From Armatimonadota bacterium (lineage in GTDB: Bacteria; Armatimonadota; UBA10988): a DNA stretch of 35,567 nucleotides. The stretch covers positions 1 through 35,567 of the forward strand of contig JACRKZ010000038.1 in NCBI GenBank assembly GCA_016235455.1. Direction: 5' to 3'. Position numbers and translations under genes: made by a program. This document shows positions 21,895 to 27,824 of the stretch, one piece after another. Under the pieces are notes generated by a model. The model did not search any database. It saw nothing but the letters and a program-made list of their open reading frames with translations, and had not been told where the DNA came from. The first letter of the stretch is position 1; every line of letters begins with the position of its first letter.

Positions 21895-21912
21895 TGTCGG
21901 CTTTTCCGACGA
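21895..21912. promoter_or_regulatory. Palindromic motif TGTCGGCTTTTCCGACGA, copy 1, upstream of porin gene 1
   Basis: GTCGG-N5-CCGAC core; identical 18-mer at 22970-22987. Confidence 0.65.
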
Positions 21913-21996
21913 CCGGTGGCCCGCCCGTGCCGCGGCGTTGTTGTTGGGGCGCCATAGGGCCAGCTAGCCGGGCTCTATCTTGAGAGGAGAGCACCT

Positions 21997-22917
21997 TTGA
22001 CTCGTGCCATCGTTGCCGTCTTGGCAATGTGCCTGCTGACCCTGGGTCGATCCGAAGCCAAGGACCCGAGCGCTGACTGGAAGTTCAAGGCGATCATCCA
22101 GACCGACTTCCGGTTCGATCCCCGCGCCGAACCCGTCTTCAAGTGGCGCCGCGTACGCGGCATCGCCACCGGCCCCCTGAGCAGCCGCTCGTATGCCAAG
22201 GTCCAGGTGGACCGCTCCATCGGCAAGCTGCGCTTCTTTGACCTGTTCACCAACTGGACAGCCGTCAAGGGCCCGGCCAATGTCGACTTGACGCTCGGCC
22301 TGTTCTTCCCCGCGTTCGCCAGGGACGGCTGGGAGCTGCCTAAGGGCATCGACTATGCGTATGTCACCGAGGCGCTCGGACTGCAGTTCCGCCAAGGCGG
22401 CTTCCAGGCCGCGGCCACGTTCGGTAAGCGCTACCAGCTGGCAACCGGTGTCTTCAACGGCGCGCAGACGCTGCTCAACGACCCCAACGATCGTCCGCTC
22501 TATCTGCTCTCGGCGAGCATGATGCGGCCGACCTACAAGGCCCGCGTGTGGGGCATGGCTGGCTATGACGGCACCACCGCCTTGCAGCAGAAGACTTGGA
22601 TGTACGGCGTCGAGTTGACCGAGGTGCAGTGTGGACGGCTGTTCGCCGAAGGCTCGTGGATGGCCGGCGAGCGGTTCGGCCGCAAGGTCAGCGGAGCTTA
22701 CGGCGACCTGGGCTGGCGCTTTGGCCCGGACACCTCCGTCTTCGCACGCGCCGAGTGGTGCGACCGCAACATCGCTACCCCGGGCGCCGACCGCACGCGC
22801 TTCACGCTGAGCGCGCAGCAGCGGCTGTGCAAGTACGTGGTCGGCAAGTGGGACACGCAGTACCAGGCTGACAACGGTGACGTGCGCGGCGTGGGCCAGT
22901 TGGACATGCGCTTCTAG
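21997..22917 (+). CDS. Outer-membrane beta-barrel, OprO/OprP-like porin (paralog 1)
   Basis: AGGAG RBS with TTG start; signal peptide; FKWRRVRGIATG resembles the F..RR.R...G motif of porin O/P; alternating aromatic strands; C-terminal Phe (QLDMRF). Confidence 0.75.
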   Translation: MTRAIVAVLAMCLLTLGRSEAKDPSADWKFKAIIQTDFRFDPRAEPVFKWRRVRGIATGPLSSRSYAKVQVDRSIGKLRFFDLFTNWTAVKGPANVDLTLGLFFPAFARDGWELPKGIDYAYVTEALGLQFRQGGFQAAATFGKRYQLATGVFNGAQTLLNDPNDRPLYLLSASMMRPTYKARVWGMAGYDGTTALQQKTWMYGVELTEVQCGRLFAEGSWMAGERFGRKVSGAYGDLGWRFGPDTSVFARAEWCDRNIATPGADRTRFTLSAQQRLCKYVVGKWDTQYQADNGDVRGVGQLDMRF

Positions 22918-22969
22918 CGACCCATTCGCGGTCGCCATGACAGCCCGTTACGTCGGGCACGGCCCGCCG

Positions 22970-22987
22970 TGTCGGCTTTTCCGACGA
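22970..22987. promoter_or_regulatory. Palindromic motif TGTCGGCTTTTCCGACGA, copy 2, upstream of porin gene 2
   Basis: Exact copy of 21895-21912 in an otherwise diverged intergenic region. Confidence 0.65.
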
Positions 22988-23080
22988 GAAGCCGCGCGGC
23001 GGGCCGGTCACATACTTGCCAGACAGTCTCCCCGGATCCCGCGGCACCAGCGCGCGGGGTCGCTCGGAAGGGAGACTTTT

Positions 23081-25006: not shown

Positions 25007-25085
25007 CGCCGACCCCGGCACGCGCTACAATGGCACTGGCGCAGCCGGCCGCCGGCACCGTGCCGCCGACGCACCAGGATGGACC

Positions 25086-26366
25086 ATGGAGAGTCGTTTG
25101 CCAACCAGCCGCCTCAAGCCGCTGCCGGGCATGCCCCGCGCCACCGGCGAGCACCCTGACCTGCGCGACGTGGGTCAGGCGCTAGGCGAGTTGCGGCTGC
25201 TCCAGCAGCTCAATCAGGCCATCATCGCCAACCTGCCCAGCGGCATCGCCGTACTCGACCAGGATGGCCGCCTGCTCTACTTCAACGGCACTTTCGGCCG
25301 CATGTGGGACCTCGACCTGGCCGCGCTGGGCAAGCACTTGGCCGAGGTGGCCGGCGACGGCCCGCTATCGCGCATCAACTGGCGCGGCGAGGTGGCCCGA
25401 CTGATCGAAGGTGGCCAGGCGCTGCCCGGCAACCTGCTCGAGGCCGGCGAACGGCCCTCGCGCCGCGTCATCCGCTACGGCCTGTTCTCGCTGCCGCCCA
25501 CCGACTTCGACCTGCCGCGCCGGCTGGTCGGCGACGAGTTCTGCCTGGGCTTCCTGTCGCAGCACGAGTGCATCGGCGACTGCCAGGAGTGCTGCGCGCA
25601 TACCGCCACCTGGCAAGGCGACCACGCGCTGCTGCTGGTGGAAGACATCACCGACCAGCGCCAGCTGGAAGCGCAACTCACCCAGAGCGAGAAGCTCGCG
25701 GCGCTCGGCCAGCTCTCGGCCGGCGTGGCCCACGAGATCCGCAACCCGCTGTCGGCCATCTACAACGCGGCCTTCTACATCGCCGACGTGCTGTCCGACG
25801 AAGAGCCCGACGTCGGCGAGTTGCAGGAGTACGTGGCGCTCATCCAGCGCAATGTCGACCGCGCCCAGCGCACGGTGACCAACATCCTCAACTTCGCGCG
25901 GCCCAGCGGGCCGGACCGCACGACCGCCGACCTGAGCGACCTGGTGGAGCAGACGCTAGCCATCCTGGACAAGGCCCTGGTCGACCAGGGCGTGGCGCTC
26001 GAACGGCACCTGCGGAGCGGTGTGATGGTGCGTTGCCGGCCCGAGACGGTCAAGCAGGCACTGCTCAACCTGATCGTCAATGCGCTGCAGGCCATGCCCG
26101 AAGGCGGCACGCTGATCGTCGCCACGGCGCGCGAGGATGGCGATTTTCCGTCGGTGCTGGTCACCGACACCGGCTCGGGCATCGCCGCGGGCGACTTGAG
26201 CCGCATCTTCAACCCCTTCTACTCGACCAAGCCCGCCGGCCAGGGCACCGGGCTGGGCCTGAGCATCGCGCGCCAGGCCATCGAAGCCGATGGCGGCCGG
26301 CTCGATGTGGCCAGCGAGCTCGGCCGGGGCACGACGTTCGAGATGGCCCTGCCCGCTGCGCACTGA
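25086..26366 (+). CDS. Cytoplasmic PAS histidine kinase (NtrB/AtoS-like) with a Cys-rich insertion in the PAS domain
   Basis: IIANLPSGIAVLDQDGRLLYFN...LLVEDITD (PAS), EKLAALGQLSAGVAHEIRNPL, QALLNLIVNA, DTGSGI, FNPFYSTK, GTGLGL; no TM. TACAAT at 25026-25031 upstream. Confidence 0.92.
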   Translation: MESRLPTSRLKPLPGMPRATGEHPDLRDVGQALGELRLLQQLNQAIIANLPSGIAVLDQDGRLLYFNGTFGRMWDLDLAALGKHLAEVAGDGPLSRINWRGEVARLIEGGQALPGNLLEAGERPSRRVIRYGLFSLPPTDFDLPRRLVGDEFCLGFLSQHECIGDCQECCAHTATWQGDHALLLVEDITDQRQLEAQLTQSEKLAALGQLSAGVAHEIRNPLSAIYNAAFYIADVLSDEEPDVGELQEYVALIQRNVDRAQRTVTNILNFARPSGPDRTTADLSDLVEQTLAILDKALVDQGVALERHLRSGVMVRCRPETVKQALLNLIVNALQAMPEGGTLIVATAREDGDFPSVLVTDTGSGIAAGDLSRIFNPFYSTKPAGQGTGLGLSIARQAIEADGGRLDVASELGRGTTFEMALPAAH

Positions 26367-26369
26367 CCC

Positions 26370-26430
26370 GGAAGCGCGGACCTCCAGGTCCGCATGCCCC
26401 GCGCGGGCCGACCTGGAGGTCCACGCTCCC
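26370..26430. repeat. REP doublet (REPIN/BIME-like inverted pair)
   Basis: GGAAGCGCGGACCTCCAGGTCCGC on + (26370-26393) and GGGAGCGTGGACCTCCAGGTCGGC on - (26407-26430). Each is a GAAG/GGAG foot plus an internal palindrome, and the two together form an 18-bp stem with one mismatch. Confidence 0.75.
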
Positions 26431-26468
26431 AGAGATCTGGTTTAGAATGGAGCCGCGAGGAGCCTTTC

Positions 26469-27824
26469 ATGCCGACGCCGAGGCGCCGCGTCCTGCTGGT
26501 GGACGACGACGAGGACATCCGCATCACGATGCGCGCCGTGCTCAAACGCGCGGGCTACAACGTCACCGCCGTGAGCAACGGCGAGGCGGCGTTGGAGGCC
26601 GAGCGTGAGCACCGCGTGCCCGTGGTCATCACCGACCTGAAGATGCCCGGCATGTCCGGCGACGAGCTGATCGGCCGCATGCGCGAGGAGTTCCCCGAGA
26701 CCTCCATCGTCGTCATGACCGGCTACGGCAACGTCGGCCATGCCGTGGACATGATGCACAACGGCGTGGCCGACTACCTGACCAAGCCCGTCAACCCCGA
26801 CGAGCTGGTCTTCCGGCTCGAGCGCATCTTCTCCGCGCGCCACTTGGCCACGGAGAACGAGGCGCTGCGCGAGCAGGTGCAGACCACCGGCAAGGGGCGC
26901 GAGATCCTGGGCCAGAGCCCGGAGATCAAGCGGGTCATGGACCTCATCGACAAGGTCGCGGACACCGACGCCACGGTGCTCATCACCGGCGAGAGCGGCG
27001 TGGGCAAAGAGCTCGTGGCCCAGGCCATCCACGAACGCAGCCGGCGCACCGGCGCGCCGTTCGTCAAAGTGTCCTGCGCGGCGCTGCCCGAGACGCTGCT
27101 CGAGGTCGAGCTGTTCGGCGCCGAGGAAGGCGCCTACACCGACGCGCGCCGGCAGCGCATCGGCCGCTTCGAGCTGGCCTCCAGCGGCACGCTGTTCCTC
27201 GACGAGATTGGCGATGTCTCGCCCGGCGTGCAGATCAAGCTGCTGCGCGTGCTTCAGGAGCGCGAGTTCGAGCGGGTTGGCGGCAACGAGACCATCGCGG
27301 TCGATGTGCGCCTGATCTCCGCGACCAACCAGGACCTGCGCGACCCGAGCCATGTGCCGCCGTTCCGCGAGGACCTGTACTACCGGCTCAACGTGATCAA
27401 CATCCATGTGCCGCCGCTGCGCGACCGGCAGGGCGATATCGCGGCCTTGGCCGAGATGTTCCTCAAGCGCTCGGCGCGCGAGATGAGCCGCGGTGTCAAG
27501 CGCATCGCGCCACCGGCCATGCGCCGGCTGAGTGAGTACACGTGGCCGGGCAACGTGCGCGAGCTCGAGAACGCCATCGAGCGGGCCGTGGTGCTGGCTG
27601 ACGGCGATCTGCTCGACCTGGCCGACTTCGACTTCCTGGAGCCCGCGCGTGGCGCGGCCCGCTCCGAAGGGCCGGAGGACGAGACGCTGGAAGCCATGGA
27701 GCGCGCACACATTCGGCGTCTGCTGGCGGCGTGCGGCGGCAATCGCACGCAGGCGGCGGAGCGGCTGGGCATCCATCGCGAGACGCTGTACAACAAGATC
27801 CGGCGGTATGGGCTGGAGGATTAG
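26469..27824 (+). CDS. Sigma54-dependent NtrC/AtoC-family response regulator (REC, AAA+, Fis-type HTH)
   Basis: [21 protein letters not shown] (Walker A); [75 protein letters not shown] at 26443-26448. Confidence 0.96.

Follow-up and report, generated by a model that had tools for sequence, protein, structure and literature searches.

A 35,567-nucleotide (nt) contig of an Armatimonadota bacterium (JACRKZ010000038.1; hereafter the window) carries, between positions 21,895 and 27,824, genes for two porins, a small helical protein, a stand-alone receiver, a histidine kinase with a cysteine-rich PAS domain, and an NtrC-type sigma-54 activator. On balance, our analysis leans toward assigning the signaling genes to a branched two-component system of the NtrB/NtrC type that belongs to one Armatimonadota order and has the porins as two of its targets. 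This branched sigma-54 system probably senses redox state or a metal, with the porins as dispensable targets. Compared with the initial annotation, which had read the six genes as a phosphorelay dedicated to the porins, the system is narrower in range than had been hoped and its links are better supported.

In the mechanism that we propose, the kinase would hold, by virtue of a four-cysteine insert in its PAS domain, a metal or iron-sulfur (Fe-S) center that reports redox or oxygen state, and would phosphorylate the activator. The activator would bind palindromes of the form TGTCG-N7-CGACA and open -24/-12 promoters read by a second sigma-54 factor, RpoN2; nrfHA and the porin genes would be switched on in this way, as probably would an acyl-CoA ligase/acetyltransferase gene. 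The kinase would also phosphorylate the lone receiver, whose α4-β5-α5 face would bind the helical protein. Because the helical and receiver genes lie behind an RpoN2-type promoter, this pair would form a feedback branch, either competing for phosphate or passing the signal on.

Kinase, activator and proposed receiver branch

The kinase (25086..26366, + strand; H216 in an HEIRN box) matches the Pfam families PAS, HisKA and HATPase_c, and the activator (26469..27824, + strand) matches Response_reg, Sigma54_activat and HTH_8, showing the receiver (REC), AAA+ and Fis-type helix-turn-helix (HTH) architecture of the NtrC family. The best NCBIfam matches are AtoS for the kinase (250.8 against a cut-off of 646) and AtoC for the activator (452.1 against 714), and neither protein reaches any of the NCBIfam cut-offs that define AtoSC, ZraSR or NtrBC equivalogs. 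We compared the source genome (G000, 6.5 Mb) with five other genomes of its family (G001 to G005), of which G001 shares its genus; completeness is 80% for G001, 93% for G002, 72% for G003 and 95% for G005. Kinase and activator genes are adjacent at the locus and in three of the four relatives where both orthologs were found, and the activator is one of only two true enhancer-binding proteins found in the source genome. That the kinase phosphorylates the activator is very likely.

The most distinctive feature of the kinase is the motif C153-x8-C162-x3-C166-x2-C169 (25542..25592, + strand), which lies in an insert between the last two PAS strands and whose cysteines are invariant in all five family kinases. 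When 1.84 billion representative sequences were searched with a PAS-plus-insert profile, four proteins matched the whole profile, and all four keep the cysteine motif; a fifth relative (P0022) lacks exactly the insert and is otherwise colinear around the gap. Among homologs the motif takes the form C-x7/8-C-x3-C-x2-C, and the four cysteines are kept in nine of nine insert-bearing kinases, down to 45% identity. Within the phylum, the PAS profile matched 7 of 401 genomes, six of them with the insert. Conservation of this kind makes it quite likely that the insert holds a metal or Fe-S center; that such a center reports redox or oxygen state is a proposal to which we give slightly less than even weight. 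The initial annotation had called the kinase soluble, which holds for the source genus only: the source protein has no transmembrane (TM) segment (maximum hydropathy 1.15), and a pair of TM helices is found in its orthologs from three other genera, accompanied in two by a HAMP match. Since the four cysteines are kept in kinases both with and without a TM-HAMP head, the pattern suggests that the insert is probably the kinase's sensor. A fold search with the model of the kinase PAS domain returned ordinary PAS and LOV domains; NreB, another kinase with PAS cysteines, is absent among the matches listed, and its partner is not known to be a sigma-54 activator.

A reading in which this wiring is right and the signal is not redox seems to us rather unlikely. 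The four cysteines would then form a structural zinc site, and the kinase would receive its true input from a small ligand (nitrite or lactate, for example) or via a membrane/HAMP region, in the manner of Desulfovibrio NrfS or LurS. N-terminal membrane heads in three of five family orthologs and in the distant P0006 favor this idea, as does the fact that the clearest palindromes stand before porins, nrfHA, a lactate transporter and envelope genes. The cysteine spacing of the kinase, whose PAS domain contains no CX2CX11C(X2C) motif, also differs from that of NreB (CX2CX11C or CX2CX11CX2C; PMC13478379), a kinase with cysteine ligands in its PAS domain that is linked to nitrate/nitrite respiration in Staphylococcus. 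Kinases of the source genus, on the other hand, lack the whole membrane head yet keep all four cysteines, and in the membrane-anchored forms of the family little sequence separates the two TM helices. The first three cysteines, moreover, share the C-x8-C-x3-C spacing of OrpR from D. vulgaris (C52, C61 and C65), whose PAS domain carries a [4Fe-4S] cluster responsive to redox state and governs sigma-54 transcription (PMC8359166). Compared by description, OrpR is a one-component activator with three cysteines near the start of its PAS domain, whereas the protein studied here is a kinase with four cysteines before the last PAS strand.

The stand-alone receiver (24626..25006, + strand) matches Response_reg and has an intact phosphorylation site, D10, D11, D54, T82 and K104 being invariant in five of five sequences. 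The source genome contains 114 receiver domains that we could find, 103 of them parsable. Set against the 102 other receivers, the α1 helix of the lone receiver, which docks kinases, ranks first in similarity to that of the activator (26, the next scoring 16) over a chosen set of positions; over the whole domain, five other receivers are closer to the activator and two tie. On the strength of the docking helix, it seems reasonably likely that the kinase phosphorylates the lone receiver as well.

The helical protein (24178..24612, + strand) was found in 5 of 401 phylum genomes, and none of these five members has a Pfam match. By language-model features it resembles RsbRD_N, with an atlas score of 0.92 to a cluster in which 18% of members carry PF14361 (RsbRD_N). 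A PDB sequence search with its alignment gave no match, and longer, fused forms were looked for and not found (weak evidence). None of the 80 loci that a metagenome scan with the receiver alignment yielded, at 28-42% identity, has a match to the porin, the helical protein or the Cys-PAS domain. A model of the complex between the helical protein and the lone receiver scored 0.82, against 0.00 for the best control; among solved pairs 116 of 157 reach the threshold applied, and among mismatched pairs 2 of 215, figures that hold only roughly with the alignments used here. Contact agreement is at least 84% and the predicted local distance difference test (pLDDT) value of the partner at least 83. 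In the model, the receiver's α4-β5-α5 face contacts the invariant C-terminal motif of the helical protein, and the interface covers invariant residues of both proteins. We therefore consider it likely, as the modeling predicts, that the helical protein binds the output face of the lone receiver. A role as a histidine phosphotransfer (HPt) protein was considered and rejected, the helical protein having no invariant histidine and the modeled interface being the α4-β5-α5 face. The modulator role first suggested for it is supported in the form of predicted receiver binding. The term phosphorelay does not survive either: because the kinase is not a hybrid and contains no receiver, and no HPt histidine is present, this is not a multistep His-Asp-His-Asp phosphorelay.

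A second sigma-54 factor, its candidate promoters and the palindrome

The gene rpoN, whose presence the initial annotation had left to be confirmed, is present in two copies in the source genome. One encodes a canonical RpoN (RpoN1), of which four of the five relatives have a copy; the other, rpoN2 (G000:C176:3570-4946; L061, L092; homologs L080-L084 and L093-L111), is found in all relatives and encodes a protein with an altered RpoN box that aligns to RpoN1 only over about 120 C-terminal residues (28% identity). RpoN2 was matched in 54 of 401 phylum genomes, against six with the cysteine kinase, and the idea that the two track each other was dropped. Just upstream of rpoN2 lies a reverse-strand GG-N8-TTGC site in the source genome, in four of five family relatives and in 15 of 19 more distant loci; by chance, about 8% of 230-nt stretches would hold such a site (4309 in the genome). 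In 19 of the 24 other genomes examined, the site overlaps rpoN2's own sigma-70-type promoter region, and reverse sites of this sort may mediate self-repression of rpoN.

A promoter matrix trained on 16 distinct rpoN2 upstream sites, all from other genomes, gives the -24/-12 element before the helical gene (24122..24135, + strand; RpoN2-type class, score 14.8) the top rank within the window and rank 93 across the genome. This element is kept in three of the four relatives that carry the helical gene, where the scores are 15.8-21.2; the porin elements of two relatives score 13.3-14.5, and four perfect canonical sigma-54 promoters score 0.8-7.4. Against a background of 8 in 575, scores of at least 12 occur before the helical gene and the lactate-type transporter gene in four of five genomes each, the acyl-CoA ligase gene in 3/5, a decaheme cytochrome gene in 3/6, nrfH in 2/6, the porins in 2/5 and the gene for pyruvate:ferredoxin oxidoreductase (PFOR) in 2/5, the last having a GG-N8-TTGC element in all five. 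A filtered genome-wide list, from which the filter dropped the helical gene itself, contains 39 promoter candidates; about 11 precede redox or anaerobic genes, as judged by family scan or sequence reading, including four of the top five. A conserved -24/-12-like element before a NuoF-like operon was discarded on finding that it lies inside coding sequence in all five relatives.

Two of the loci with RpoN2-type elements merit description. The first (G000:C4:45523-48160; L060) encodes a DmsE-like decaheme cytochrome present in 6/6 family genomes and followed 3' by a 537-amino-acid (aa) secreted protein without a family match, a combination that looks like a porin-cytochrome electron conduit. The second (G000:C185, from 10704 onward; L358) is an operon for a membrane protein, a Rieske protein and cytochrome b, its genes named from their sequences (the first was scanned, with no Pfam match), behind an element scoring 17.2.

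Activators carrying a GAYTDA motif, which PMC4641369 lists as functional, are found in the source genome, G002, G004, G005 and G006. With two RpoN proteins and two enhancer-binding proteins in the source genome, RpoN2 would by elimination pair with the GAYTDA activator, and we think it fairly probable, from promoter sequences and this pairing, that the activator opens -24/-12 promoters read by RpoN2. In two distant genomes, canonical rpoN adjoins a GAFTGA activator and a second activator has GAFTDA; in G236, by contrast, a GAFTDA activator stands beside canonical rpoN, and the loop motif is therefore not diagnostic of the sigma partner. A kinase adjoining a GAFTDA activator in that genome (L091; G236:C44) has no cysteine insert and a different N-terminal domain. 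The four canonical promoters of the source genome (C26:43907, C36:11629, C38:13075 and C100:35724), two of which precede polysaccharide-export or sugar-transferase-like genes as judged by N-terminal sequences, probably depend on RpoN1 together with the GAFTGA activator on C165.

Upstream of each porin gene lies a palindrome of 17 base pairs (bp) with 5-7-5 geometry and the form TGTCG-N7-CGACA, a probable activator site (21895..21912 and 22970..22987). The two copies are identical as an 18-mer, TGTCGGCTTTTCCGACGA, which occurs nowhere else in the 6.5-Mb genome even when one mismatch is allowed. Its core is invariant before the porins of G003 and G004, representing two other genera, while the outer stems differ. 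With up to one mismatch, the palindrome precedes four of five porin genes, nrfH in 2/6 genomes (a third has a three-mismatch site, and in two others nrfH follows the upstream gene after a short gap), the acyl-CoA ligase/acetyltransferase gene in 1/5 and a lactate-type transporter gene in 2/5; the corresponding backgrounds are 13 of 575 gene-upstream windows and, for the A/T-rich form, 19 of 3000 random windows. A blind genome-wide scan for TGTCG-N7-CGACA (up to one mismatch, A/T-rich spacer) gave 266 sites, mostly in open reading frames (ORFs); of three that were followed, one precedes nrfH-nrfA (G000:C151:57690-59790; L130) alongside an RpoN2-type -24/-12 element. The same pairing recurs in G004, with two sites, and in degenerate form in G001. 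Compared with its reversed control, the looser pattern YGTCGG-N5-CCGACR was only modestly commoner in three of five relatives and not commoner in the other two, and hits to a combined palindrome-plus-promoter pattern were set aside as mostly chance matches inside ORFs. Activator motifs in which TGT and ACA half-sites stand 11 bp from each other have been described (PMC4641369). Taken together, these sequence patterns make it somewhat more probable than not that the activator binds TGTCG-N7-CGACA. Since the palindrome and the promoter class also mark genes unlinked to the locus, outer-membrane permeability, which the initial annotation had taken as what the system switches, would be one output rather than its purpose.

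A broader proposal, which we advance only tentatively, is that Armatimonadota possess a sigma-54 circuit that is orthogonal, in which a diverged paralogue represses itself and has a promoter consensus of its own. In the order studied here, its driver would be a kinase whose Fe-S sensor loop is of a new type, and a globin-like protein clamped onto a lone receiver would tune it. Such a circuit might switch genes of anaerobic respiration and fermentation (nrfHA, PFOR, decaheme cytochrome, Rieske/cytochrome b, Hcp, lactate transport and porins).

Gene order and the weighing of alternatives

The layout of the locus is as first described, with six real ORFs, all on the + strand, shared palindromes ahead of the porins, and a -24/-12-like element (GG-N10-GC) before the signaling genes. 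Conservation of the six-gene order, by contrast, was found in none of the five family relatives. G003 and G004 have the order porin, helical gene, gene X, receiver; G004 has the kinase-activator pair on another contig, and no close kinase or activator ortholog was found in G003. G005 retains a block of helical gene, receiver, kinase and activator, and G002 a helical-receiver block with kinase and activator elsewhere in the genome. Helical and receiver genes are thus linked in four of four relatives, the helical gene not having been found in G001, and the contiguous layout is a local arrangement of conserved sub-blocks. The supposed tie between porins and signaling genes holds in part: porin and helical genes are linked in two of three porin-bearing relatives (three of four porin-bearing genomes with the source counted), and the link was not seen in G001, G002 or G005. 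Gene X (138-144 aa; L009:8090-8524, + strand, and L010:9518-9934, - strand; copies 63% identical) has no Pfam or atlas match and is present in two of the seven genomes of the order, not being found in the other five.

A series of observations weighs against the branched system as we have drawn it. Among the proteins, the structure model places the cysteine insert between the last two PAS strands with low confidence (pLDDT <50). GAYTDA departs from GAFTGA at two positions, and changes to that motif, above all at its Phe or Thr, often abolish activity (PMC3162934). RpoN2 reaches 61.6 bits against TIGR02395 (cut-off 277) over its C-terminus only, with PF04552 above cut-off; the canonical copy, at 250 bits, also falls under the TIGR02395 cut-off. 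Among the DNA elements, that before porin 2 (23006..23019, + strand) is weak, with a matrix score of 3.1, and porin 1 has no good one (2.5). A palindrome with up to one mismatch precedes the helical gene in 0/5 genomes, PFOR in 0/5 (best sites with 2-3 mismatches), the decaheme cytochrome gene in 0/6 and Hcp in none. Several palindromes have their centers only 28-31 nt from the -24 GG, on its upstream side, nearer than the enhancer norm, and two perfect ones before the lactate transporter sit downstream of the best promoter element. Two further palindrome-promoter pairs in G004 precede non-redox genes, for a prepilin-type protein and a secreted protein, and many of the 39 promoter candidates will be chance, with only about 11 redox or anaerobic. 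As to gene order, no porin was found in G005 or G002, both of which keep all four signaling genes, and porin, kinase and activator lie on three separate contigs in G001. The relatives compared are, finally, kin rather than independent samples.

Some of these same points would follow if the palindrome belonged to another factor, either a repressor or the second enhancer-binding protein (on C165), with the activator serving other targets and the porin lying by the helical gene as an old linkage. Beyond the unusual positions of the sites relative to the promoter element and the persistence of the signaling genes where no porin was found, this explanation can draw on the same-genus porin of G001, which has no palindrome upstream, and on G003, which has a porin with its palindrome and in which, at 72% completeness, neither a close kinase ortholog nor a close activator ortholog was found. 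We nevertheless regard it as improbable: the 5-7-5 geometry and A/T-rich center are typical of sites for Fis-type activators and resemble the tested LurR/NrfR sites, the activator's recognition helix is nearly invariant in six of six orthologs, and the palindromes are repeatedly paired with -24/-12 elements.

The porins themselves bear on the original scheme of a dedicated six-gene phosphorelay that switches the anion permeability of the outer membrane. Porin 1 (21997..22917, + strand) and porin 2 (23081..24004, + strand) are 44% identical and have no family match above cut-off in Pfam or NCBIfam, nor a Pfam OprO/P match. Porin 1 has a signal peptide and a C-terminal Phe and belongs to a family predicted to form 16-stranded barrels. 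Modeling and the fold search used porin 2, with porin 1 as a row in the alignment; as in 16-stranded porins, the model has 16 strands, a long L3-type loop after strand 5 and a terminal Phe, together with a signal peptide. Its closest folds are chitoporin (Z 20.5), Omp32 (Z 19.5) and OprP (Z 19.4), and superposition on solved 16-stranded porins gives root-mean-square deviations of 3.5-3.7 over 258-269 residues. The modeled barrel is that of the trimeric porins chitoporin, Omp32, OprP, OmpT and DcaP, from which the porins here differ in having 8-13% identity and, with the porin alignment as query, no PDB sequence match. The family occurs in 4 of 41 genomes searched, all within one bacterial family, and a metagenome scan with porin 2 found nothing. 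Seven invariant Lys/Arg residues and net basic strands fit a putative anion selectivity, with the fold search tying chitoporin, Omp32 and OprP. These conserved basic residues in the barrel strands, the porin-helical linkage and the palindrome conserved alongside it are what the dedicated scheme has in its favor; with a six-gene order confined to the source, relatives lacking a detectable porin, no HPt, motifs at unlinked operons and a tied fold search, we judge it very improbable.

It is just as doubtful that the palindrome is the mere tip of an RNA hairpin (a terminator or stabilizer) copied during porin duplication. In the window, both copies do form the tips of long stems (z -5.35 and -7.0), a short way beyond the stop codon of the preceding gene. 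The core, however, is invariant where the outer stems differ, the G004 region folds no better than shuffled sequence (z -0.5), and G003 and G004 have a divergent gene upstream, with the site on the upstream side of the promoter element.

Related systems and neighboring features

The closest parallel to the output side is LurSR/NrfSR of D. vulgaris (PMC6456213). There, the sigma-54 response regulators LurR and NrfR recognize a similar GTC...GAC palindrome, 16 bp long and A/T-rich at its center, and control por (PFOR), a lactate permease gene and nrfHA, the same kinds of gene as here. The tested Desulfovibrio site has the spacing GTC-N10-GAC, compared with 15 bp (GTC-N9-GAC) in the window, and LurS, unlike our kinase, is a hybrid kinase, large and membrane-bound, that contains three PAS domains. 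The likeness is one of description, and the excerpted text of PMC6456213 makes no mention of a lone receiver, a helical partner, a porin or a second sigma-54. By analogy, the output side would work like LurSR/NrfSR, and the input perhaps like OrpR or NreB. AtoS/AtoC, ZraS/ZraR and NtrB/NtrC have the same pairing of a PAS-HisKA-HATPase kinase with a REC-AAA+-HTH activator; what goes beyond them here is the cysteine insert, the GAYTDA motif and the receiver/helical branch.

Several sigma-54 genes with separate promoter sets are also found in Rhodobacter sphaeroides (PMC12316311, PMC3162934). According to these sources, promoters of the R. sphaeroides paralogues differ only at -11, whereas the RpoN2 site differs in the -24 region; RpoN2 is further set apart by its altered RpoN box and by an alignment to canonical RpoN that is C-terminal only. 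The excerpts of both papers make no mention of Armatimonadota, and among the top-ranked literature matches we found no description of this system or of sigma-54 in that phylum.

If correct, the proposal would add three testable elements to what is known of bacterial signaling: a new four-cysteine metal or Fe-S module within the PAS hairpin, a helical protein that docks on a lone receiver's output face, and a sigma-54, highly divergent and with a promoter sequence of its own, in the 54 phylum genomes that match it. It would also offer a point of entry to the regulation of anaerobic metabolism in a phylum whose members are mostly uncultured, and a sigma-54/activator pair unresponsive to canonical promoters could be put to use in orthogonal expression. 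The proteins of the system are all small enough for tests in Escherichia coli.

Other elements lie between and around the six genes. An Rfam scan of 21700-28000 gave just two miRNA-like hairpin matches, chance-level and below gathering score, and thus no support for a riboswitch, and a sigma-70 promoter scan gave no sites. A long GC-rich hairpin 3' of porin 2 (24016..24098, + strand) may be a terminator or stabilizer that separates the porins from the signaling genes, and an inverted repeat lies between kinase and activator (26370..26430, + strand). Directly upstream of the porins, 18616-21846 (+ strand) encodes a 1076-aa secreted protein with seven carboxypeptidase-regulatory-like repeats, which was not found beside the porins of relatives. 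Genes for an M50B peptidase and a URO-D-family protein (27821-29637, - strand) converge on the activator. The URO-D gene adjoins the activator ortholog in G001 too, so that the activator's position is preserved in that genome even though the kinase and the porin are located elsewhere.

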